Below are positions 22,874 through 55,520 of a stretch of DNA of 64,000 nt, piece after piece. The DNA lies in assembly GCA_049840995.1 (NCBI GenBank), contig JASGIP010000002.1, one strand, 5' to 3'. Under the pieces are notes generated by a model. That model was not told the DNA's origin and did not search any database. It saw nothing but the letters and a program-made list of their open reading frames with translations. Each line of letters begins with the position of its first letter. The first letter of the stretch is position 1. A program made the translations under genes and the position numbers. The DNA comes from Ferruginibacter sp. (lineage in GTDB: Bacteria > Bacteroidota > Bacteroidia > Chitinophagales > Chitinophagaceae).

Positions 22874-22943
22874 TACGCCGTTTGTCGGATCCAAGACGGC
22901 GGCGAGTGGAGTACGCCGTTTGTTGAAACCAAGACGGCGGCGA
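22874..22943 (+). repeat. Two tandem R2 short REP-like hairpins
   Basis: TACGCCGTTTGT-n-CCAAGACGGCGGCGA at 22874 and 22912. Confidence 0.85.
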
Positions 22944-23035
22944 AGCATGAAGCGAAGTTGCTTATACACTAAAAAAATGCATACCGCAAACAATCGTGTT
23001 TTTGGTATGCATTGTATTAAATGTGAGATCCGTTT

Positions 23036-23548: not shown

Positions 23549-23795
23549 TAGTTTTTAGGGATTAAATGTAAATGAAAAAATTTGATTTTTATGAATCACT
23601 TGCAGGGCAAGAGGGAAATAAACAGGAGCGCTGTGCTTAAAATTATTTTTAAGTTATCATTCAACTTTGTTTTACCCTGGTTCAATAAAGAAAATGACCT
23701 TTTCGCAATGCGTTTTTACAATATTAAGAAGAAGATTGTTTTTCTTGAAAACCAAGTTGCAATTATTGGTGGTTGTATGGAATAGGTTGAGTGGG

Positions 23796-23926
23796 TACGC
23801 CGTTTGTTGTACTTCGACAAAGCTCAGTACCAAGACGGCGGCGAAAAAATTGGGTTGCAATTATTGGGAGGTTGTGTGGAATAGGATGAGTGTATACGCC
23901 GTTTGTTGAAACCAAGACGGCGGCGG
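23796..23926 (+). repeat. R2 long copy (23796-23844) and R2 short copy (23895-23926)
   Basis: The long form carries GTACTTCGACAAAGCTCAGTAC in the loop. Confidence 0.85.
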
Positions 23927-23943
23927 CGGACGGGGCAAAGAAA

Positions 23944-23966
23944 AAAAGCAGGGAAAACCTGCTTTT
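23944..23966 (-). terminator. Terminator of the peptide-export operon
   Basis: AAAAGCAGG-GAAAA-CCTGCTTTT with the T-run on the minus strand, downstream of the HlyD stop. Confidence 0.75.
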
Positions 23967-23982
23967 ACGTTTTACATAAGGA

Positions 23983-25317
23983 TCAATTTTTTATGGTATT
24001 GAGCATGCTGTTATAAAACCGCTGGAGCAGGCGCATATTTTGTGTTATGATCTCTGCCTGGGCTGCAAGGCCATCGGTAAACTGCACTTGTTTTTTATAA
24101 TTGGTCTGTAGCTTGTTTGGCAAGATCACTCTTGCAAGATAGCCGCTGTCGGTGGTGATATTGGAAATGAAATCGATCCTTCCCCGTACGTATCCATATT
24201 CCTGGAAAGGGTAGGCGGCAAATTTTAATTGTACTTCCTGGCCAATATGCACTTTTCCAAAATTGGTTTGAGGTATATGGATCTCTGCATAATAAGATGC
24301 GTTGCCGGGATTCACAAAACATATTACCCGGTTGTTTTCCAGCTGTTGGTTTTCTTGCAGGAAGCTGGCAAATGCTACCACGCCATCAACTGGTGCGGTT
24401 AAAATATATTTCTTTTTCCATTCTTCCAGTTCGCTTTTGAAAGTATTTAATGACTGGATGAAAATATTTTTTTGTTGTGCCACCTGGTTATCCAGTTCCA
24501 GTATCTCTTTTTGTTTTTCATTTTGTGTGTTCTCATTACTGAGCAGGTTGCTGCTGATCTGTGGCAGGGATATTTTTTTATTCAGCAGTTTACTTTCCTC
24601 GTTGCGGTAATCGAAAGCGGATATCACGCCGTCTGTTTTCAATTGTTTGTTGGCATCAAATGTTTGCTGTGTTAGATCAAGATCCTTCTCCAGGATTTCT
24701 TTTTGCTGTTCCAGTGCCGAATGCTGCCGCTGCAGGTTCATCATATCTTTCTGCAACATATTTTTTTTGTGCAGATAAAAACCGCTGCTGAGGTAATCGC
24801 AGAATTGGCGCAACTGCTGCATGAATGTTTGGTATTGCGGTTGTAATTCGCCCAATTGCTGGTGAATGTCGGTAAGATAGGGCAGCGCTTTTTCGGGTGC
24901 GTTGTTATCAAGATGATACCGAAGGTTGTCAATTTCCTGGTCCAGTGCGATCACTTCTTCAGGATCGGCAATACTTTCCATGAAGGCGAGTACTGTTCCT
25001 TTTTTGACGAATGTATTTTCTTTTACAAAGAGCCGGACCAGTTTTCCCGCTATGAGTGTTTTAACTTCTTTGGGCGCATTCAGGGAGGTGAGCTTTGCTT
25101 TTGTAAGAACAGTGTCCGGGTAGCTTATCAGCCAGCAGGCAGCGATCATCAGCAGCAATACCACCAGGAAAATACTGGTACCCCGCCTGGTAATAAAGCC
25201 CGGCCGGTTGGATATGATTTCCTGTATCAAGGAATCCTGCAGTTCTTCCTTTGTTGCTGTAATGCTTATTTGCTCACTGTTATGTGTAGACGTAATATGA
25301 TGCCTATTGACTGGCAT
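23983..25317 (-). CDS. HlyD family membrane fusion protein of a type I peptide exporter
   Basis: Single N-terminal TM, lipoyl half-motifs (VKKGTVLA; LTAPVDG), coiled coil, AYPFQEYG; start 25317 avoids a 71-nt overlap with the transporter. Confidence 0.88.
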   Translation of the reverse strand: MPVNRHHITSTHNSEQISITATKEELQDSLIQEIISNRPGFITRRGTSIFLVVLLLMIAACWLISYPDTVLTKAKLTSLNAPKEVKTLIAGKLVRLFVKENTFVKKGTVLAFMESIADPEEVIALDQEIDNLRYHLDNNAPEKALPYLTDIHQQLGELQPQYQTFMQQLRQFCDYLSSGFYLHKKNMLQKDMMNLQRQHSALEQQKEILEKDLDLTQQTFDANKQLKTDGVISAFDYRNEESKLLNKKISLPQISSNLLSNENTQNEKQKEILELDNQVAQQKNIFIQSLNTFKSELEEWKKKYILTAPVDGVVAFASFLQENQQLENNRVICFVNPGNASYYAEIHIPQTNFGKVHIGQEVQLKFAAYPFQEYGYVRGRIDFISNITTDSGYLARVILPNKLQTNYKKQVQFTDGLAAQAEIITQNMRLLQRFYNSMLNTIKN

Positions 25318-25327
25318 ATAGTTATTT

Positions 25328-27520
25328 TTAATTGCCCATTTCAAGTTGATTGCGCACGAGTTCAAAATAATTTTTCTTTCTCCTGGCCAATTGCTCATGC
25401 GTTCCTTCTTCTATGATCTCACCTTTGTCCAGCACCACGATCTTATCGGCGTTCTTTACCGTACTTAAGCGGTGCGCTACCACCACCACTGTTTTGCCTT
25501 TAAAGAATTCCTGCAATTGTTCCATAATGAGTTTTTCATTATTGGCATCCAGGGCGTTGGTTGCTTCATCAAAAAAAAGGTATTCGGGATTTTTGTATAC
25601 GGCACGGGCTATTAAAATGCGCTGTCTTTGCCCGGCACTGATGCCATTACCTTCGGCGCCTATTTTTGTCTGGAACCCCAGCGGCAACGATTCTATGAAG
25701 GAGAGTATATTAGCCACTTTGCAGGCATGCAGTAATTTTTTGTGATCGGTCACTTCGTCACTTACCGCAATGTTTTTGGCAATGGTATCGCTGAAGATAA
25801 AGCCATCCTGCATTACCGTACCGCAATTGTGCCGCCAGTATTTGGGGCTGATATGTTGCAGGCTGCTGTCGCCTATTTTTAAACTGCCCTTATAACCACT
25901 GTAAAATTGCAGCAGTAATTTTAACAGTGTTGTTTTACCACTGCCACTCATACCTACTATGGCGGTGACCTTGCCCTCGGGTATCACGAGATCTAAATTT
26001 TTTAATACCGGTTCATTACCTGCACCGGCGTAAGTGAAAGAAAGATCATTGATATGGATAGATCTGTCCTGTGGTAAATGCGTGATGAAAGTTTTTTCTG
26101 CCGGTTCTTCTTCTTCCAGTTGATGGATCTCATTGAGCCGCTCCAGGCTTATCCGTGCATCCTGTGCCTGTTGCACAAAACTGATCAATTGTTCTATAGG
26201 GCTGTTAAGCTGACCGATGATGGATTGTATAGCCATCATAGCGCCCAATGTCAACTGACCATCGAGCACTGCTTTGGCAACAAAAAATGTAATGAGCATG
26301 TTTTTTCCTTCATTGATAAATAATGCCCCGGCCTGCTGGTATTGACTTAGTGAAAGGTTTTTAAAGCTGAGATTAAATATGGATGCCTGTACATTTTCCC
26401 ATTCCCATCGACGCAGGTGCTCTGCATTGTTCAGTTTTATATCCTGCATGCCCTGTATCATCTGCATGGTAATACCATTTTCTTTTGCAGAGAGGTCGAA
26501 GGTTTTATAATTGAGGTTGCGGCGGTATTTTAAAAACAGTTTTATCCAGGAAAAATATATAATGCTGCCGATACAGAAAATGAAAAAGATTCTCCAGTCG
26601 TACATTAAAAGCACAATCGAGAACATCACGAGGTTGATGCAAGAAAACAATACGTTCAATGTTGACCCGGTGAGAAAGGATTCTATTTTACGGTGATCGC
26701 CTATGCGCTGTAAAATATCCCCGGTCATTTTGGTATCAAAAAATGAGAGTGGCAGGCGCATCAGTTTTATCCAGAAGAAAGATAATAAGGAAAGGTTGAT
26801 CCGGGTACTGATAAATAACAATATGCGGCTTCGGATAAATTCTACAACCGTTCTGCCAAAGAACAGCATGAACTGAGCAATCAAAACAATATAGATGAAT
26901 TGGAGGTTGTGCGTATTGATGCCGGTATCAACTATGCTTTGTGTAAGAAAGGGGAGTACCAATTGCAACAGGCTGCCGATGCCCAGGCCCATGAATACCT
27001 GCACAATGTATTTTTTATGCCGTGTAAGCTGCTGTAACAATATGCTCCATCCCAGTTTTTTATCTTTATCACCTTCCTGTTTATAGAATGCGGCTGTTGG
27101 TTCCAGCAACAGGGCAATGCCCGTTTGTTCGCTGTTGTTTTTATTACTGCTCCATTTTTTTAAAAAACTCTCTTTACTGCATTCGATGATCCCGGTGGCT
27201 GGGTCTGCTATAATAATTTTTTTAAGGGTTGAAGAGGGAGTTACCACCACGAAATGGTCCTGTCCCCAATGTACAATGCAGGGCAGCTTTGTTGCTTTAA
27301 TTAATTGCTCAAAATTCAATTTTACGCCTGCTGTATGGTATCCTATGTTCTCTGCCGCTTCGCTGATGCCTAATAGTGATACACCTTCTTTACTGAAACC
27401 GCTTTTTTGCCGCAGGTTGTCCAGCGAAAAATGCCGTCCGTAATATTTACTGATCATGCGCAGGCAGGATGGCCCGCAATCCATGGTATCGTGCTGCTTA
27501 TAAAATGGGAAGGTTGGCAT
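25328..27520 (-). CDS. Peptidase-containing ABC transporter (C39 + ABC; PCAT)
   Basis: QHDTMDCG catalytic Cys, HW...HF catalytic His region, TM domain, Walker A GMSGSGKT, ISAGQRQR signature, FFDEATNALD. Confidence 0.95.
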   Translation of the reverse strand: MPTFPFYKQHDTMDCGPSCLRMISKYYGRHFSLDNLRQKSGFSKEGVSLLGISEAAENIGYHTAGVKLNFEQLIKATKLPCIVHWGQDHFVVVTPSSTLKKIIIADPATGIIECSKESFLKKWSSNKNNSEQTGIALLLEPTAAFYKQEGDKDKKLGWSILLQQLTRHKKYIVQVFMGLGIGSLLQLVLPFLTQSIVDTGINTHNLQFIYIVLIAQFMLFFGRTVVEFIRSRILLFISTRINLSLLSFFWIKLMRLPLSFFDTKMTGDILQRIGDHRKIESFLTGSTLNVLFSCINLVMFSIVLLMYDWRIFFIFCIGSIIYFSWIKLFLKYRRNLNYKTFDLSAKENGITMQMIQGMQDIKLNNAEHLRRWEWENVQASIFNLSFKNLSLSQYQQAGALFINEGKNMLITFFVAKAVLDGQLTLGAMMAIQSIIGQLNSPIEQLISFVQQAQDARISLERLNEIHQLEEEEPAEKTFITHLPQDRSIHINDLSFTYAGAGNEPVLKNLDLVIPEGKVTAIVGMSGSGKTTLLKLLLQFYSGYKGSLKIGDSSLQHISPKYWRHNCGTVMQDGFIFSDTIAKNIAVSDEVTDHKKLLHACKVANILSFIESLPLGFQTKIGAEGNGISAGQRQRILIARAVYKNPEYLFFDEATNALDANNEKLIMEQLQEFFKGKTVVVVAHRLSTVKNADKIVVLDKGEIIEEGTHEQLARRKKNYFELVRNQLEMGN

Positions 27521-27550
27521 CGGGAAATGTTTCTTTGTTCAATAAGGATC

Positions 27551-27594
27551 AAAAAAGTAAAACCTGGTTTGAGTAATACAAACCAGGTTTTACT
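27551..27594 (-). terminator. Strong hairpin/terminator between the precursor and PCAT genes
   Basis: Perfect 16-bp stem AGTAAAACCTGGTTTG(27556-71)/CAAACCAGGTTTTACT(27579-94), T-run on the minus strand. Confidence 0.85.
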
Positions 27595-27612
27595 GGCCTG
27601 CAATTGTTTTTC

Positions 27613-27861
27613 CTATGAAGGATTCATGCAGGTGCAGGATGCAGGCCAAGGTGGATTGTACATGCATCCCATCGCATCTACCTGAAGTGTTTCAGGGTCG
27701 CAATTAGGCACTGCAATGGCAATTGGGGTTGTGCATTCGCCACCAGATGCAGCTGCGCAACACCTGAAAAGGCATCCATTGGGTAATTTATACCCTCCTT
27801 TTACATTTTTCATTTCTTCTTTGGACAACAGTGTGCCCAAATCTTTATATTTCATTAACAT
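27613..27861 (-). CDS. Double-glycine leader precursor peptide with an 8-Cys core
   Basis: LSKEEMKNVKGG leader; 59-aa core C-x3-CC-x7-C-x10-C-x11-C-x9-C-x-C; directly upstream of the PCAT. Confidence 0.88.
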   Translation of the reverse strand: MLMKYKDLGTLLSKEEMKNVKGGYKLPNGCLFRCCAAASGGECTTPIAIAVPNCDPETLQVDAMGCMYNPPWPASCTCMNPS

Positions 27862-27971
27862 AGCTTACGACAGTTTTATAACATACAAAAGCTGCCAAAA
27901 ACTTTAATTTTTAATTTGCCTACTCTGTTATAAAGGTTTTCGGCTTCGCCTTCTTTTTGGCCAAAAGAATT

Positions 27972-29582
27972 TTAAAAGAAGTGGTTTAATTCGTTGATGC
28001 TGTAGTTTTCGGGTAATATCTTTTCATTTACAAAAAGGGTGGGTGTGTACATTATAGAAGAGGCTTTGCACCATTTAGTCATGGCTTCTACTTTTGCGTC
28101 CTGCATTTTCAGTTCGCCGTTCATGGGATATTTTGCAGCGAATGAAGGATAATCTTTTTGTGGTGCCAGGTACCAATCATCCAGCGCCTGCTGTGTTTGC
28201 TGCGCATTTCCTTTGGCAGCAATTGCCAACAAATGTTTCACCACAATGGCTGCTTTATCCTGTTCATTATTAGCGGCGGTAAAAATGATCTTGATCTTTA
28301 CATCATCATTGCGATGCAATATTTCTTCCAGTGCCGGGTGGGCTTTTGCACATGGACCGCAGTAGGGGTTGCATACTTTAATGATGGTTTGCGTAGCAGC
28401 TGGATTGCCGAGTGTTATACCAATATCCTGGTAGCCGGGTGCCGCAGTTTCTTCCTGGTTCAGCAGGCCCTGGAATACACTGGGATTATAGAAAAGTCGC
28501 TTATAAGCGGATTGATAATCTGCCCGTGCTTTTAGCCGAAGCCATACGGGTTTAATAATATACCATGCGGTAATGGGTACAAGGGTGGCTGTAAGCATGT
28601 TAACAGCGATCGCTCCTGAAATTGGTGGCAATGCCGGGTGTTGCCAAAAGTTAACCATACTCCAGGTTAGCTCCAGTAACAGTATCGCCTGTACGCTGAG
28701 GCATAAAGTACACCATTGTTTTACGATCTTCCATTGGTAATAAAGACTGAAGGGGATATAAGTTGCCGCAACGCAATTGGCAACCGCCAGCCAGGATATT
28801 TTTGCTGCATAGGAAATACCTGGCAACAGCAAAAACAATGTAGACCCCATAAAATAAAAAAAGCCCAGTTCGCCCCAACTGATGCCTGATATTTTTGCAG
28901 CCTTGCTATTTAACACCGCATCACAATTGGTGCGTGTGCCGCCTGTACAGACGCTTTTTACAAACTGGTTGCTTTTGTCGATATCGTATACCAGCAGCAA
29001 AGCAGTTACAGCAATACCTGAAAGTTTTAGCAACAAAATAGCTGTTGCCGAAAATGCAGCAGCACCTGTTGAAAATAAAAAACTGCCGATGAGTAAACCA
29101 ACAATTAAAATGGCGCTCAGTACCAGTCTTGTTTTTGCTGCGCTTGCTTTTTTCTCGTCCATTAAATGCTTTTCATAATCCGGTTCACCGCTTTTATCAG
29201 ACCGCTCTGCAACAAACACGATCTTTTCCCATTTCTCTATGAATTTTTCACGGTTCATAGTACGGGATCTGTTGGTACTGGATATATAACTGATCTGCCC
29301 TGCACTAATGCCTGTTACCAATACAAAATCCTTTTCATCGTCTTCCAGTTTCATGTAGGCCACAAAGGGTGTTTCCATTTCATCCAGTCTTGTCGGGTCT
29401 ATGCGGAAAGACTGGTTGGGAATATTTAATTTATCAAATACATCATTCAGGCTGTAAAGCGTTGGATAGTAAGGATTTTCTTCGATGCGCTTTTGCAATG
29501 TTTTTTTTGTGACGGGTATGGACAGGTGTTGTACATATTGGTAGGCAGTCTGTGATAACCTGCTCGAAATTGGCTGAAGCAT
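27972..29582 (-). CDS. C39-like domain / VKOR / thioredoxin(DsbA)-like fusion membrane protein
   Basis: N-terminal C39-like fold lacking the QxxxxDCG Cys; VKOR loop C212-x7-C220, SWGELG, and WCTLC (C291/C294); Trx CGPC (C408/C411) and YTPT cis-Pro loop. Confidence 0.88.
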   Translation of the reverse strand: MLQPISSRLSQTAYQYVQHLSIPVTKKTLQKRIEENPYYPTLYSLNDVFDKLNIPNQSFRIDPTRLDEMETPFVAYMKLEDDEKDFVLVTGISAGQISYISSTNRSRTMNREKFIEKWEKIVFVAERSDKSGEPDYEKHLMDEKKASAAKTRLVLSAILIVGLLIGSFLFSTGAAAFSATAILLLKLSGIAVTALLLVYDIDKSNQFVKSVCTGGTRTNCDAVLNSKAAKISGISWGELGFFYFMGSTLFLLLPGISYAAKISWLAVANCVAATYIPFSLYYQWKIVKQWCTLCLSVQAILLLELTWSMVNFWQHPALPPISGAIAVNMLTATLVPITAWYIIKPVWLRLKARADYQSAYKRLFYNPSVFQGLLNQEETAAPGYQDIGITLGNPAATQTIIKVCNPYCGPCAKAHPALEEILHRNDDVKIKIIFTAANNEQDKAAIVVKHLLAIAAKGNAQQTQQALDDWYLAPQKDYPSFAAKYPMNGELKMQDAKVEAMTKWCKASSIMYTPTLFVNEKILPENYSINELNHFF

Positions 29583-29773
29583 ACAATTAATTTTTCGGTT
29601 GATAAGGAATGACTGTTGCAGTGCTAAAATAGATTTTTACAAAAGGCAGGTTGCGTGACAATGACCATTGCACTGCCTGTTTTTATCAACTGCATGGTTT
29701 TAACAATAATTGCAGGACTGGTTTTATAAATTTTGCCTGCTACATAGGGTAATATTATTTATATTGTGTTGGT

Positions 29774-31654
29774 ATGCGCTTTTTAAACCAAACTCTTATG
29801 AAGTGTTGCCTTTTTGTACTGTGTATATTAACCAGTTACATCAGCCAGGCACAGCCCGGCAGCCTGCAGGAACTTATTGCCAGGGCCAAAACAGAAAAAG
29901 ATACCACCCAGGTAAATACATTGATAGATATTGCTGCCACTTACAGCTACAATGGGGCGCATGACAGTTCGGATTATTATACCCAACAGATACTGGAAAA
30001 ATCCACACAGCTCAATTACCCAAAGGGTATTTGTATGGCCTATAATGCCTGGGCAACGAGTTATATGGTACAGGGCAACTACGATAAATCGCTGGCTGAA
30101 TATTTTAAAGCCCTTGACATTGCGGAAAAGAACGGGCTGGAACAGGCTGAGATCATTATGACGATGAATATTGCAACGGTATATACTTTCCAGGAAGAAT
30201 TCAATAATGCCATTCCTCTTTTGAAAAAAGTGTACAACTATGTTTTTAATAAAAAACACAATATCATGCGCTCTGCAGGTGTAGCCACCAATATTGGTGT
30301 TTGTTTTCAGCACCTGGGCCGGATGGATTCTGCAAGGGCTTATTTTGATCGTGGCCTTGAACTGGAAGCTGCAATTGATACTGCCGGCTTTACAGAAACC
30401 AAGTGGGCGGAGTACGAATTGCTGAAAGGAAGTTCTCTGCCTAAAACAGCAGATTTTTATGTTGGTATTGGTAATCCCCGAAAAGCACTGGACCTGATAC
30501 TTCCTTTTTGGAACGACATAAAAAAAGGCGATGATAAGGAGGGGCAGTTGTCTGTTTTAACAGTATTGGGTAAATCGTACCTGGCCATTGATAAATACGA
30601 CAGCGTGATCTATTACAGCAATATTGGCCTGGGGCTTAATATGGCTGAACAGATCCCAGAGTCGGTAAAGGATATTTATTTCAACATTGCTTCGGCGTAT
30701 AATAAGACCGGGCATTTTAAAGAAGCTTTTGAAAGCCAGCTGCGTTTTCAGCAACTGAATGATTCTATTTACAACAAAGAAAAGTTCAGGTCCATTAAGA
30801 ATATGCAGGTGAAGTATGAAACGGAGAAGAAAGAACAACAGATACTTTCATTGAATAAAGAAAAAAAAGACCAGTTTATCATTATAGGAATCTCGATCGC
30901 TGCTTTTTTAATTGCGCTGGTGCTTTTGCTTTTTGTACTCCGTTCTAAAAGGTTTCAGAAAGAATTATTCCGCAACGAAAAGCTGTTGCAGAATAATGAG
31001 CTGGAGCGAAAGATGACCGAGCTGGAACAAACCGCCCTGCGGGCGCAGATGAACCCGCATTTTATTTTTAACTGCCTCAATTCTGTGCAGCGTTTTGTTA
31101 TTAAAGGAGATATTGAAGGAGTGAATACTTACCTCGCCACTTTTGCAGGATTGATACGACAGACGCTGGAAAATTCCGGAAAGAAATGGATCGTGCTTAA
31201 AGATGAGATACAATACCTGCAATCTTATTTAGGAGTGGAGCAAATGCGTGGAAATACTATTTTTCAATACCAGGTTACTGTTGATCCGGCGCTGGATACC
31301 AGTATGGTACTGGTACCGGGCATGATCATTCAGCCCTTTGTGGAAAATGCTATTAATCATGGCATGTCCGGCAAAGCAGCAGGGGCGGGCAGGATCATCC
31401 TGGATTTTACAAAGACAGATAAACTTGTATGCAGTATCACTGATAATGGTAATGGTATTAAAAATTCCGGTGGTCTTGCAAATGCTGCACACCAATCGTT
31501 GGGCAATGATATTACCAAGAAAAGAATTGCAGCGTATAACGCTTTGGAGCAGGATGCTATTGAACTGGATATTACAGATCTTTCAGAAAAGGATGCTGCA
31601 ACTACCGGCACCATGGTCCGTATCAGTTTTCCGTTGAAAATAAATGAAGCATGA
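29774..31654 (+). CDS. TPR-containing LytS/YehU-type sensor histidine kinase
   Basis: Signal peptide, TPR repeats, one TM, ALRAQMNPHFIFNCLN, QPFVENAINHG, DNGNG. Confidence 0.92.
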   Translation: MRFLNQTLMKCCLFVLCILTSYISQAQPGSLQELIARAKTEKDTTQVNTLIDIAATYSYNGAHDSSDYYTQQILEKSTQLNYPKGICMAYNAWATSYMVQGNYDKSLAEYFKALDIAEKNGLEQAEIIMTMNIATVYTFQEEFNNAIPLLKKVYNYVFNKKHNIMRSAGVATNIGVCFQHLGRMDSARAYFDRGLELEAAIDTAGFTETKWAEYELLKGSSLPKTADFYVGIGNPRKALDLILPFWNDIKKGDDKEGQLSVLTVLGKSYLAIDKYDSVIYYSNIGLGLNMAEQIPESVKDIYFNIASAYNKTGHFKEAFESQLRFQQLNDSIYNKEKFRSIKNMQVKYETEKKEQQILSLNKEKKDQFIIIGISIAAFLIALVLLLFVLRSKRFQKELFRNEKLLQNNELERKMTELEQTALRAQMNPHFIFNCLNSVQRFVIKGDIEGVNTYLATFAGLIRQTLENSGKKWIVLKDEIQYLQSYLGVEQMRGNTIFQYQVTVDPALDTSMVLVPGMIIQPFVENAINHGMSGKAAGAGRIILDFTKTDKLVCSITDNGNGIKNSGGLANAAHQSLGNDITKKRIAAYNALEQDAIELDITDLSEKDAATTGTMVRISFPLKINEA

Positions 31655-32406
31655 AAATTACCGCACTAATAATTGATGATGATGCCGACAGCAGGATGAT
31701 ACTGCGTGCCTTTATGGAGCAATACTGTCCGCAGGTAGCTATTGCCGCTGAAGCTGCATCGGTGGCTGAAGGATTTGAAAAGATCACGGAACTGCAACCC
31801 GACCTGCTGTTGCTGGATATTGAGATGAAGGACGGTACGGGTTTTGACCTGCTTCGTATGATGCCGCAGAAAAAATTTGAAGTGATCTTTATTACGGCTT
31901 ATGATACTTATGCAGTGGAAGCTTTTAAATATACCGCTATCGGCTACCTGCTGAAACCTGTACTGGTTGCAGACCTGGTAACTGCTGTGCAGGCTGCTTT
32001 GGAAAGGATCAGGAAAAATATTTTTGAATCGCAATGGATGGCGCTTTCGCATAACCTGGAGAGTAAGGAAAGGTATGACCGCAAGCTTGCTATTGCAACT
32101 TCGGCAGGATATGTGTTTGTGAATGTAAAGGAGATATCGTGGTGCGAATCGCAGGCCAACTATACGGCATTTCATTTTTTATCCAGCAAAAAGATCGTTT
32201 CGTCGCGTAACCTGGGTTTTTATGAAGAGTTGTTACCGGTTGAAAAATTTTGCCGTATTCATCACTCCAGCCTGGTGAATGTTGATTATATCGAAAAATT
32301 TAACCGGCGTACCAATGGTGGCTCGGTGATCATGATGGATGGTACTGAGCTGGATGTTTCTCAACGGAGGAAGGAAGAGTTTTTGCAGTATTTTTTGTCG
32401 AGATAG
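31651..32406 (+). CDS. LytTR family response regulator
   Basis: Receiver (IIDDD, LLLLDIEM, KP) plus LytTR RIHHSSLVN and VSQRRK; 4-nt overlap with the kinase. Confidence 0.93.
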   Translation: MKITALIIDDDADSRMILRAFMEQYCPQVAIAAEAASVAEGFEKITELQPDLLLLDIEMKDGTGFDLLRMMPQKKFEVIFITAYDTYAVEAFKYTAIGYLLKPVLVADLVTAVQAALERIRKNIFESQWMALSHNLESKERYDRKLAIATSAGYVFVNVKEISWCESQANYTAFHFLSSKKIVSSRNLGFYEELLPVEKFCRIHHSSLVNVDYIEKFNRRTNGGSVIMMDGTELDVSQRRKEEFLQYFLSR

Positions 32407-33458: not shown

Positions 33459-33646
33459 TACACCGTTTGCCATACTTCGACAAAGCTCAGTACCAAGACG
33501 GCGGCGAAGGGTTTAAGTCACCTGCGGTGCCTTATGTTAGAACGCGGATCTTTATGATGGTGATGATCTGTTATGATCTATCTGTGTAGATCTTATTGAT
33601 CTGTGTTCCGTTTTGTATCGCCGAAGGCGAAAGCTAAGACGGCGGC
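33459..33646 (+). repeat. Composite R2 long + R1 + R2 half
   Basis: R2 long 33459-33508; R1 from about 33517 with CACC-TGC-GGTG and TCGCC-GAA-GGCGA hairpins; AAGACGGCGGC tail. Confidence 0.85.
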
Positions 33647-43516: not shown

Positions 43517-44992
43517 ATGAGTAACAATCAAGCAGGGCGCCACGGTATAGTTCGTGGGCTCGATTCCGTTGCACGGTCATCGAGTTTTGAAGGCCGTTTT
43601 GGAAGAATGTTCCGCACCTTACCCGCCGCAACATGGCCAGAGGATGCATTAAAAAAACTGGCAGCTGCCATGAGCGCAGATGCAGAAGAAAGTCCAACCC
43701 CCGAAAATAAATCCGATGATGAAGAAAATTCGGGTATCAGTGCCGGGTACACGTATTTTGGTCAATTCATTGATCACGACATTACCTTTGACCCCAACAG
43801 TTCGTTGCAGAAAGATAATGATGTGAACGGCCTGGTTGATTTCCGTACGCCAAGGCTGGACCTGGATAATGTATATGGCAGGGGACCGGATGACCAACCC
43901 TATATGTATGATAATACCGGTATGAAATTTTTACTGGGTAGGCAACTTACCGGTGCCGAAGCATTTGCCCATAACGTAAAAGATCTGCAAAGGATCACAA
44001 CCGAGCCTAAGCGTGCCATCATCGGCGATCCACGAAACGATGAAAATGTGATTGTTTCGCAACTGCAGGGAGCGTTCCTGCGTTTTCACAATTACTTGGT
44101 GGAAACGATGCCCGGTAGTAGCTTTTCTGATGTACAAAGGGAAGTGCGTTTTCATTATCAATGGGCGGTGCTGCACGATTTTCTGCCAACGATCATTGGC
44201 CAGAAGATGGTGGATGATATACTCTCCGGCGGTTTAAAATTTTATAAACCACGCAAAGAGGCTTACATGCCGGTGGAATTTTCGGTGGCAGCATACCGGT
44301 TTGGGCACAGCATGGTGCGACCCATATACCGCCTTAGCCAAACCATTCCCCGCTTTGCTATTTTTTCAAATGACCCGGGCAGTAGCCTGACCGGTTTCCG
44401 GGAATTCCCTTCCAACTGGGCCATCGACTGGCGGTTGTTTTTCAACTTCGGTAATAACCCGAATCCACTTTCGCCGGAACGTATTCAACCGGCGTATAAG
44501 ATCGACACCTCGCTGGTGAATCCATTGGCCAACCTGCCTGCAAGTGTGGGAGGTAACATACCAAGCCTTCCATTCAGAAATTTATTGCGGGGGCTTCGTA
44601 TGGGATTGCCCTGCGGCCAGGATGTGGCCTGTAAAATGAATGTAACCCCGATACCGGACAAAAATTTAAAAGTGGGCAAGGCTACAGAAGGGGATACGGC
44701 AACAAATAAAAGTATTGTGGATATAGATCCATCATTCAAAGGAAAGGCACCATTGTGGTTCTATATTCTTGCAGAAGCGCAGCAGCAATTTAAAAAGAAT
44801 AATACGCCCATCAGGCTCGGCGAGGTTGGAGGAAGAATTGTGGGCGAAGTGCTGATCGGTTTATTACTGAATGACAGCCATTCGTATCTCAGCATGGCCC
44901 CCTGCTGGCAGCCCCGGCACGACCTGTTGCTCAATGGTAAATTCAGTATCGCCGCTTTAATTGCTGCCGCAGGCAAGAGCAGCAATGTCTGA
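43517..44992 (+). CDS. Bacterial heme peroxidase (animal peroxidase/cyclooxygenase superfamily)
   Basis: GYTYFGQFIDHD distal motif, GDPRNDEN, AAYRFGHS proximal His, LWFYILAEA. Confidence 0.88.
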   Translation: MSNNQAGRHGIVRGLDSVARSSSFEGRFGRMFRTLPAATWPEDALKKLAAAMSADAEESPTPENKSDDEENSGISAGYTYFGQFIDHDITFDPNSSLQKDNDVNGLVDFRTPRLDLDNVYGRGPDDQPYMYDNTGMKFLLGRQLTGAEAFAHNVKDLQRITTEPKRAIIGDPRNDENVIVSQLQGAFLRFHNYLVETMPGSSFSDVQREVRFHYQWAVLHDFLPTIIGQKMVDDILSGGLKFYKPRKEAYMPVEFSVAAYRFGHSMVRPIYRLSQTIPRFAIFSNDPGSSLTGFREFPSNWAIDWRLFFNFGNNPNPLSPERIQPAYKIDTSLVNPLANLPASVGGNIPSLPFRNLLRGLRMGLPCGQDVACKMNVTPIPDKNLKVGKATEGDTATNKSIVDIDPSFKGKAPLWFYILAEAQQQFKKNNTPIRLGEVGGRIVGEVLIGLLLNDSHSYLSMAPCWQPRHDLLLNGKFSIAALIAAAGKSSNV

Positions 44993-54944: not shown

Positions 54945-55520
54945 TTGATCATTGATACTTTAAGAACCGCCACCAAAAAAGCACACCAGGACCTGGATCA
55001 TTATATTTTTCCTATCATACGGAAAATAGACGATAATGAGGAATATGCAAAACTGCTGAAAGTGTTTTTCGGGTATTTTAAACCGGTATATAACCAGTTG
55101 GATAAATACCTTACAGATGATAATGTGCAGCTGTACAGCAGTCGTCGTAAACCGGAACGCATTATCGAAGACCTTACAGCATTGGGTATGCAGGAAGAAG
55201 GATTTTTATTATGTGATAGTTGTCCATTGATCGATACAACAGCCAAAGCCTTTGGCGCTTTTTACGTGTTGGAAGGGTCAACTATGGGAGGTAATATCAT
55301 TGTGCGCAACCTCATGGGACAGTTAAAAAAAGCGCCACCGGCAAGTTTCAGTTTCTTTTCCGGTTATGCAGACCAGAACCTCCAGATGTGGAATTTTTTC
55401 CTCACTGATCTGGAAAATAATACGCAACCGGCAGCAGTGGACGAACTGGTGCATACCGCTTCAGCAACTTTTTTAACATTCGCTAACTGGATAAAAAATA
55501 ATTATGAGTCTGCAGATTAA
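54945..55520 (+). CDS. bphO: Biliverdin-producing heme oxygenase
   Basis: LRTATKKAHQ proximal His; GAFYVLEGSTMGG; TTG start; overlaps the phytochrome by 17 nt. Confidence 0.88.
   Translation: MIIDTLRTATKKAHQDLDHYIFPIIRKIDDNEEYAKLLKVFFGYFKPVYNQLDKYLTDDNVQLYSSRRKPERIIEDLTALGMQEEGFLLCDSCPLIDTTAKAFGAFYVLEGSTMGGNIIVRNLMGQLKKAPPASFSFFSGYADQNLQMWNFFLTDLENNTQPAAVDELVHTASATFLTFANWIKNNYESAD

Follow-up and report, generated by a model that had tools for sequence, protein, structure and literature searches.

A C39-like/VKOR/DsbA fusion protein in a candidate operon for a disulfide-rich peptide of Ferruginibacter, predicted to face the cytoplasm

Bacteriocin-dedicated oxidoreductases are known from the sublancin 168 locus of Bacillus subtilis SPbeta (sunA-sunT-bdbA-sunS-bdbB) and, in the form of the accessory protein PedC, from pediocin. 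Peptides that combine a double-glycine (GG) leader with disulfides as their only modification are usually class II bacteriocins or microcins, and not ribosomally synthesised and post-translationally modified peptides (RiPPs). The closest characterised relatives, in concept, of the system described here are the bacteroidetocin loci of Bacteroidota, where a Cys-containing peptide with a GG leader is encoded beside a peptidase-containing ABC transporter (PCAT) and a dedicated thiol oxidoreductase (PMC6671954). Bacteroidetocins have been proposed as class IIf bacteriocins; the toxin is less active when the oxidoreductase gene is deleted, and a set of four genes is sufficient in E. coli (Coyne et al. 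2019, PMC6671954). The subject of this study is an operon in a 64,000-nt stretch of DNA (the window) from the Chitinophagaceae bacterium Ferruginibacter sp. (assembly GCA_049840995.1, contig JASGIP010000002.1). The operon encodes a fusion of C39-like, VKOR and DsbA-like thioredoxin domains, a Cys-rich precursor peptide, a PCAT and a periplasmic adaptor of the HlyD family (Table 1).

The operon appears self-contained, and we consider it fairly likely that it makes and exports a disulfide-rich miniprotein whose core is cross-linked before export by an inward-facing, leader-guided oxidase. An initial annotation had described four co-oriented genes (a fusion, a GG-leader precursor with eight Cys, a PCAT with its catalytic Cys and HlyD) closed by a terminator, with a disulfide oxidase as the sole tailoring enzyme. 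The four open reading frames (ORFs) indeed lie on the minus strand as described, their contents agree with Pfam and residue checks, and a terminator-like hairpin directly follows HlyD. Apart from the fusion the operon encodes no enzyme of a tailoring type, and the neighbouring ORFs that were scanned contain no radical SAM, LanM/LanB/LanC or YcaO domain, in agreement with the annotation.

The fusion protein, its peptide and their gene family

The three parts of the fusion are recognised by Pfam matches that all exceed gathering scores, namely Peptidase_C39 at residues 18-128 (E 2e-8, 34.5 bits), VKOR (PF07884) at residues 181-307 (E 7e-15, 55.8 bits against a cut-off of 27.5) and Thioredoxin_4 at residues 388-534 (E 4e-12). 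The VKOR score is accompanied by the other marks of that family: PDB entries 3KP9, 4NV2 and 4NV6 align to residues 186-303, and the loop pair C212/C220, the C291xxC294 motif and the thioredoxin C408GPC411 are invariant in 79 homologues (36-57% identity). The same redox cysteines are kept in a paralogue from the same genome, only 23% identical, and in 17 more distant members. Foldseek searches with an AlphaFold2 (AF2) model matched the N-terminal domain to the PCAT1 peptidase domain, and the C-terminal domain to BdbD, alpha-DsbA2 and ScsC-type oxidoreductases with TMt values (TM-score normalised to the target) of 0.6-0.68.

The N-terminal domain is a catalytically dead C39-like fold. Residues 1-211 contain no Cys and the domain therefore cannot be a cysteine protease; its Pfam match begins at profile position 23, and the segment with the catalytic Cys is missing. 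Pairwise BLASTP could not usefully align this domain with the C39 domain of the PCAT, so residues were matched by hand from motif and Pfam register only: R8/L9 lie at about the position of the catalytic Cys, and D85 stands where the PCAT has its catalytic His (KDFVLV against DHFVVV). The domain presumably binds the leader.

The precursor carries the 23-aa leader MLMKYKDLGTLLSKEEMKNVKGG, which ends in GG, fits the pattern LSxxELxxIxGG and, with V-4, M-7 and L-12 (LSKEEMKNVKGG), has the residues of a double-glycine leader. The 59-aa core holds Cys at positions 7, 11, 12, 20, 31, 43, 53 and 55 and is acidic and Pro-rich (pI 4.3, net charge about -2); the monoisotopic mass predicted for the reduced form is 6181.66 Da, and four disulfides would lower it to 6173.59 Da. 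A search of 5.8 billion protein clusters gave no homologue of the core; it returned only the precursor itself and one leader-level match. NCBIfam leader models matched the leader only and stayed below cut-off: TIGR04149, a GG-type leader family of radical SAM-modified RiPPs, scored 19.8 bits against 25 and NF047798 scored 19.9 against 23.5.

The exporter genes are of the expected types. The PCAT matches C39 (E 1e-34, 119 bits), ABC_membrane and ABC_tran in Pfam, its active site is intact (Q9, C15, H89 and D106) and the Walker A and B motifs lie at 523 and 648; the Gln/Cys/His/Asp peptidase, the membrane domain and the nucleotide-binding domain that define the family are all present. The adaptor matches TIGR01843 (E 1e-32) and HlyD_3. 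Its start is likely M28, at position 25317, as judged from homologue N-termini and the resulting 10-nt spacing after the PCAT stop, and the longest ORF would overlap the PCAT gene by 71 nt. With HlyD 10 nt behind the PCAT and about 10 TolC-family ORFs elsewhere in the genome, the parts of a tripartite PCAT-adaptor-TolC exporter of the microcin V type are at hand. The subset of window ORFs that was scanned contains no TolC, consistent with the initial annotation. The cavity of PCAT1 is reportedly large enough for small folded proteins, which would allow export of a cross-linked 6-kDa core.

Homologues of the fusion form 1779 clusters at 50% identity (E<=1e-30) in Bacteroidota, where they are annotated merely as 'vitamin K epoxide reductase family protein'. 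Gene linkage was followed in 80 related genome loci, mostly from Chitinophagaceae with some from Sphingobacteriia and Cytophagia, 71 of which have enough downstream sequence. Under a strict rule (a regular expression for a leader peptide with at least four Cys, starting no more than 600 bp downstream on the same strand), a Cys-rich leader peptide was found in 53 of the 71 loci versus 12 of 533 random control positions, and the count rose to 64 of 71 when an AG/GS-type cleavage motif (…IMAGSG…) and non-ATG starts were allowed. The association of fusion and peptide is not due to chance. Peptide starts lie a median of 113 nt behind the fusion stop. Among 147 peptides, 129 (88%) hold an even number of Cys, most often six (89 peptides), and the cores are hypervariable with a median length of 49 aa. 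In 35 of 49 loci a PCAT gene follows no more than 8 kb away, with HlyD next in 32. The 17 more distant members are full-length proteins sampled from further families and classes of the phylum, and for 11 of them a window of 7 kb includes a PCAT. The initial annotation had called for such a neighbourhood search and would have counted homologous fusions without Cys-rich GG peptides against its reading; the outcome is clearly the opposite, as fusion homologues co-occur almost universally with Cys-rich GG/AG-leader peptides, PCAT and HlyD.

The Ferruginibacter genome contains a second copy of the system (locus L103:6070-10858; contig C3, about 396570-401360), to which the paralogous fusion (530 aa) belongs. 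Its gene order is that of the first, with a 76-aa precursor holding six Cys and a PCAT of 734 aa; the HlyD ORF has only 177 aa and is possibly truncated. Neither DsbB (PF02600) nor any VKOR beyond the two fusions was found in this 98% complete genome. The organism seems to be without a recognisable general quinone-linked disulfide oxidase of the envelope, which fits the need for a dedicated one. Among 201 Bacteroidota genomes a VKOR of any kind occurs in 35, two relatives from the same genus having none, and VKOR is therefore an accessory function.

Two plasmids carry variants of the arrangement. On Parabacteroides distasonis plasmid NZ_OY725766.1 (locus L121, 4995-11605), a distant fusion with 24% identity is followed by a 59-aa Cys-rich peptide with an AG leader and then by genes for a DUF4369 protein, a LanC-like protein, two glycosyltransferases and a PCAT; the locus may be a glycocin-like variant of the system. 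Plasmid pEMTOL02 of Emticicia oligotrophica DSM 17448, a cultured type strain, holds two tandem modules of fusion, peptide and TlpA-like protein (L122), which adjoin a histidine kinase-LytTR pair and a lantibiotic dehydratase. Hydrotalea flava CCUG 51397 and Sediminibacterium salmoneum NBRC 103935 are further cultured carriers of the fusion.

Membrane orientation of the oxidase and alternative explanations

The Synechococcus VKOR-Trx structure aligns only from residue 186 of the fusion onwards, within the first transmembrane (TM) helix of the VKOR core (TM1, residues 177-199). Ahead of TM1 lies an additional helix, TM0, with 19-20 hydrophobic residues, a mean hydropathy of 2.15 and about 0.1 Lys/Arg in the 79 homologues; its sequence is poorly conserved yet it is hydrophobic in all 79 and in the 17 distant members. 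The junction between TM0 and TM1 is a short polar turn rich in Gly, Pro, Asn and Ser, and the two together form a hydrophobic stretch of 48 residues with a polar Gly/Pro/Asn turn in its middle, typical of a helical hairpin. Six spans would place the C39-like and DsbA-like domains on the same side of the membrane as the VKOR cysteines.

The distribution of Lys and Arg indicates which side this may be. On the active-site side, the 79 sequences have on average 5.0 such residues in the 15 positions before TM0, 4.7 in the loop with the Cys pair (loop 1-2), 2.0 in the loop before the CXXC (loop 3-4) and 5.3 in the 20 positions after TM5. The corresponding means on the opposite side are 0.10 in the TM0-TM1 turn, 0.67 in loop 2-3 and 0.33 in loop 4-5, giving totals of 17.1 versus 1.1. 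The sign of the bias is identical in 79 of 79 sequences, and the 17 distant members are alike. Canonical VKOR-DsbA fusions from other Bacteroidota genomes (about 410-450 aa, without a C39-like domain or TM0) served as a matched control and are reversed, with 3-10 Lys/Arg before TM1, 1-5 in loop 2-3 (3-5 in five of six), 2-6 in loop 4-5 and 0-2 after TM5, where an Ala/Pro-rich linker leads to the DsbA domain. Unlike this linker, the corresponding segment of the fusion is a Lys/Arg-rich helix that extends from TM5. The hallmarks of outward-facing VKOR-Trx/DsbA proteins, five spans and Lys/Arg in loops 2-3 and 4-5, are absent from the fusion. An AF2 model built with 79 sequences (predicted local distance difference test, pLDDT, 91.3; predicted TM-score, pTM, 0.77) breaks the helix at residue 172, the TM0/TM1 junction, and the N-terminal domain of 150 residues has no signal peptide.

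From the number of TM helices, the positive-inside rule and domain logic, a cytoplasmic location is predicted for the C39-like domain, for all four cysteines of the VKOR core and for the CGPC of the DsbA-like domain. PCATs remove the leader at export, so the leader-bearing substrate exists only in the cytoplasm. Taking all evidence together, we put the chance that the fusion is an inward-facing enzyme at about two-thirds. An inverted VKOR (VKORi) combined with a signal-less DsbA forms disulfides in the cytoplasm of E. coli (PMC13486548). Stand-alone VKORs were also seen in other Bacteroidota genomes (loci L087, L088 and L102); these proteins are small (about 136-160 aa), with hardly any N-terminal tail and with a Lys/Arg-rich Cys-pair loop (six Lys/Arg in L088), and might also be inverted. 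The neighbours of the L088 gene are unrelated to peptide export.

In the pathway that we infer, down to the number and pairing of the disulfides, the export route and the activity of the product, the 82-aa precursor with its 23-aa double-glycine leader would be made in the cytoplasm, where the leader could dock on the dead C39-like domain of the membrane oxidase. The DsbA-like CGPC would oxidise the core before the leader is removed, probably joining its eight cysteines in four disulfides, and the VKOR core would re-oxidise the DsbA-like domain, with electrons passing, by homology to VKOR-Trx, from C212/C220 to C291/C294 and on to a membrane quinone. The PCAT (C15/H89/D106) would then cut after Gly23, and the core would be exported with the help of HlyD and a TolC-family protein encoded elsewhere. 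Owing to a stem-loop behind its gene, the precursor transcript is probably more abundant than that of the machinery. Folding before export had already been proposed in the initial annotation; TM0 and the Lys/Arg bias now lend it computational support from topology, all of it in silico, and the proposal is unproven. The accompanying statement that PCAT, HlyD and TolC bypass the periplasm holds for E. coli systems and is not established for Bacteroidota.

Several observations weigh against this pathway. The cytoplasm is a reducing environment. With a shallow alignment of 25 sequences, AF2 draws TM0 and TM1 as one continuous helix (residues 136-201, pTM 0.59), the helix break in the deeper model amounts to one residue only, and loop 1-2 has a length of 39 aa, which makes it weaker evidence under the positive-inside rule. 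In Mantel tests leaders co-diverge with the entire fusion but not specifically with its C39-like domain, for which the partial r is 0.146 as compared with 0.128 for the catalytic part. No immunity gene is evident in the operon, and the acidic core of its peptide is unlike known cationic bacteriocins. A gene for a TlpA-like protein of 300-500 aa stands directly behind each peptide gene in 42 of the 80 related loci. These proteins have a conserved WCxPC motif in almost all cases and, by a simple rule, a signal-peptide-like N-terminus in 45 of 64, and the peptide/TlpA-like pairs often stand in tandem (e.g. L079:5533-10097, L080:2629-6993, L038, L040, L073; L122:8967-10079). They may be immunity factors (reductases) or peptide-specific isomerases, and they hint at periplasmic redox chemistry on the peptides in part of the family; a TlpA-like gene occurs neither in this window nor in the second locus of the genome. 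Finally, all bacterial VKORs characterised to date are reported to face outward (PMC13486548).

The reported outward orientation, the continuous helix of the shallow model and the periplasmic CxPC proteins beside the peptide genes would all suit an arrangement in which the same parts work with the VKOR and DsbA-like domains facing the periplasm, as would the bacteroidetocin loci, which need a 'thiol oxidoreductase' for activity and have no adaptor gene (PMC6671954). TM0 would then not truly span the membrane and would lie at the interface or form part of a long tilted helix. Oxidation of the peptide would take place in or at the periplasm during or after transport, and the cytoplasmic C39-like domain would merely dock the leader or the PCAT. 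We regard this as rather unlikely, since the Lys/Arg pattern of the fusions mirrors that of the canonical proteins at every short loop, throughout the 79 sequences and the distant members, and since both the hairpin-like TM0-TM1 stretch with its central turn and the charged helix in place of a linker after TM5 argue for the opposite orientation. A PCAT-HlyD-TolC route would, moreover, deny a periplasmic oxidase its substrate.

It is very unlikely that the fusion merely stands beside peptide genes and acts as a general envelope disulfide oxidase, or as an immunity or regulatory factor. The lack of DsbB and of any VKOR but the two fusions in the genome would give a general oxidase a place; set against this are the accessory distribution of VKOR, with none in the two same-genus relatives, the Cys-rich leader peptide that almost always directly follows the fusion, the leader-peptidase-like domain that the fusion itself carries, and genomes with several fusion copies, each with its own peptide. 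Most unlikely, in our view, is that the core cysteines do not serve disulfides at all and instead bind metal or are modified by an enzyme encoded elsewhere, with the oxidase acting on another substrate. The Parabacteroides locus, which pairs the fusion with LanC-like and glycosyltransferase genes, is in keeping with such a role, but the predominance of even Cys counts among the peptides speaks for disulfides, the DsbA/VKOR oxidase is the only enzyme conserved with the peptides, and the operon contains no further tailoring gene.

Transcript signals and surroundings of the operon

A strong stem-loop between the precursor and PCAT genes, not mentioned in the initial annotation, exceeds the hairpin at the end of the operon in strength and is a probable attenuator or partial terminator. 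The 70 nt after peptide stops show the same trend across the family, with a median minimum free energy (MFE) of -15.7 versus -9.6 kcal/mol in random windows (p=3e-15), a rough comparison as the random windows are mostly coding. Attenuators follow the structural genes in bacteriocin operons, and the stem-loop between precursor and PCAT resembles these. A search for public sequencing runs of the locus found none.

The divergent histidine kinase and LytTR response regulator upstream of the fusion gene are possible regulators of the system, and their membership is uncertain; a homologous pair is found close to the fusion in just 4 of the 80 loci, and also on Emticicia pEMTOL02. The 191-nt intergenic region between the fusion gene and this pair contains a 17-nt direct repeat (82% identical, copies 52 nt apart), which could be a LytTR site, though the spacing is atypical. 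The operon is further flanked by genes for a Kelch lipoprotein, a 170-aa protein and a MORN protein and by small ORFs, all of which were rejected as members of the system, being unlinked to the fusion in the 80 related loci. Short repeated palindromes (TACGCCGTTTGTTG…ACCAAGACGGCGGCGAA) occupy intergenic positions on both sides of the locus; they resemble REP-type repeats and give rise to spurious small ORFs. Elsewhere, the window encodes a TonB-dependent-receptor-like protein with an unusual combination of domains, and a peroxidase-like protein and two histidine kinases that appear unrelated to the operon.

Table 1. Features of the operon and of the surrounding window (positions in the 64,000-nt stretch)
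Feature	Position	Strand	Evidence or remark
Operon of four co-oriented genes	23983-29582	-	Four ORFs
Fusion, 536 aa: C39-like + TM0 + VKOR core + DsbA-like thioredoxin	27972..29582	-	Pfam, AF2, Foldseek
C39-like domain, residues 1-135	29178..29582	-	Cys-less; presumed leader-docking module
TM0, residues 152-171	29070..29129	-	Extra hydrophobic helix before VKOR TM1
VKOR core TM1-TM5, residues 177-343	28554..29054	-	Pfam, PDB alignment
DsbA-like thioredoxin domain, residues 365-536	27975..28490	-	Contains C408-G-P-C411
Precursor peptide, 82 aa	27613..27861	-	Leader 27793-27861, core 27616-27792
Stem-loop between precursor and PCAT genes	27556..27594	-	16-bp stem, T-run; MFE -24.4 kcal/mol
PCAT, 730 aa	25328..27520	-	Pfam, NCBIfam, active-site residues
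HlyD-family periplasmic adaptor	23983..25317 (likely start M28); longest ORF to 25398	-	Pfam, NCBIfam
Terminator-like hairpin	23944..23966	-	9-bp stem, 4 GC pairs, T-run; 17 nt after HlyD stop
17-nt direct repeat	29608-29624 and 29660-29676		
TPR/LytS-type histidine kinase + LytTR response regulator	29774..32406	+	Pfam His_kinase, TPR, HATPase_c; Response_reg, LytTR
Repeated palindromes	22874-22957, 23768-23940, 33459-33508		
TonB-dependent-receptor-like protein, 878 aa	1550-4186	-	N-terminal heavy-metal-associated (HMA) domain before CarboxypepD_reg + Plug
Animal-haem-peroxidase-like protein	43517-44992	+	
Multi-PAS histidine kinase, 1278 aa	49577-53413	+	
Bacteriophytochrome histidine kinase	55504-57753	+	

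Comparison with known systems

A literature search for VKOR together with bacteriocin, C39 or double-glycine returned no description of a C39-like/VKOR/DsbA fusion. Dedicated bacteriocin oxidoreductases are already known, and what was not found described in the searched literature is a dead leader peptidase fused to a VKOR-DsbA with a putative orientation-flipping helix. On balance it seems probable that these proteins are the first family of VKOR-DsbA oxidases in bacteria to face inward by nature, flipped by TM0 and aimed at leader-tagged precursors by the dead peptidase domain. They would install several disulfides in the reducing cytoplasm just ahead of export by PCAT, HlyD and TolC, and would serve a very large natural library of hypervariable miniproteins. 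If the orientation is true, substrate-targeted oxidative folding has evolved in the bacterial cytoplasm, which would be new for bacteria and would explain how peptides with several disulfides can leave through an exporter that bypasses the periplasm, even in organisms without DsbB. The fusion would then be a compact, portable enzyme for the production of disulfide-rich miniproteins in the cytoplasm, similar to CyDisCo but with a built-in leader tag, and the large family, with its hypervariable and mostly orphan cores, an untapped source of knottin-like peptides.

The sublancin and pediocin systems resemble the operon in combining a PCAT with a quinone-linked membrane oxidase of their own and a partner of thioredoxin fold. 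Their enzymes, however, are separate proteins, belong to the DsbB family instead of the VKOR family, lack a domain for leader binding and work in Gram-positive cells, beyond the cytoplasmic membrane. The C39-like domain of HlyB-type transporters is likewise a C39 fold without the catalytic Cys that binds a secretion substrate without cutting it, but it is part of the transporter and binds leaderless RTX proteins, whereas the dead domain described here sits on an oxidase and the C39 domain of the partner PCAT is active.

The bacteroidetocins differ from the peptide of this operon in their 15-aa leader and cationic 42-aa core with two to four Cys, as compared with a 23-aa leader and an acidic 59-aa core with eight Cys. 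Bacteroidetocin loci also encode a separate 5-TM protein and no HlyD, while the operon has HlyD and no 5-TM protein, and the gene order differs. Leader, core and the absent 5-TM gene thus set the operon apart from class IIf. A C39-like/VKOR fusion is not described in the bacteroidetocin paper (PMC6671954), a comparison of the oxidoreductases by description only.

The VKOR-Trx proteins of the Synechococcus type (3KP9, 4NV2, 4NV5 and 4NV6) and the VKOR-DsbA proteins of Bacteroidota and Clostridia (PMC12453122) share with the fusion the loop Cys pair and CXXC, TM5 and a Trx/DsbA-like domain with a CXXC of its own. They have five spans with the N-terminus inside, a periplasmic thioredoxin domain, Lys/Arg-rich loops 2-3 and 4-5 and no C39-like domain; the fusion family has TM0 and an N-terminal C39-like domain in addition and shows an inverted Lys/Arg pattern. 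According to the current view bacterial VKORs, like DsbB, face outward and only some crenarchaeal VKORs face the cytoplasm (PMC13486548), and it is these VKORi proteins, from Aeropyrum pernix and Pyrobaculum, that resemble the predicted orientation of the fusion, as natural VKORs with cytoplasmic catalytic cysteines (Hibender et al. 2017, as reported in PMC13486548 and PMC12453122). As far as these reports describe them, they are stand-alone archaeal enzymes that make disulfides in the cytoplasm of hyperthermophiles in general, with neither a substrate-targeting domain nor a link to an exporter, in contrast to the leader-bound and exporter-linked role that is predicted for the fusion of Ferruginibacter.

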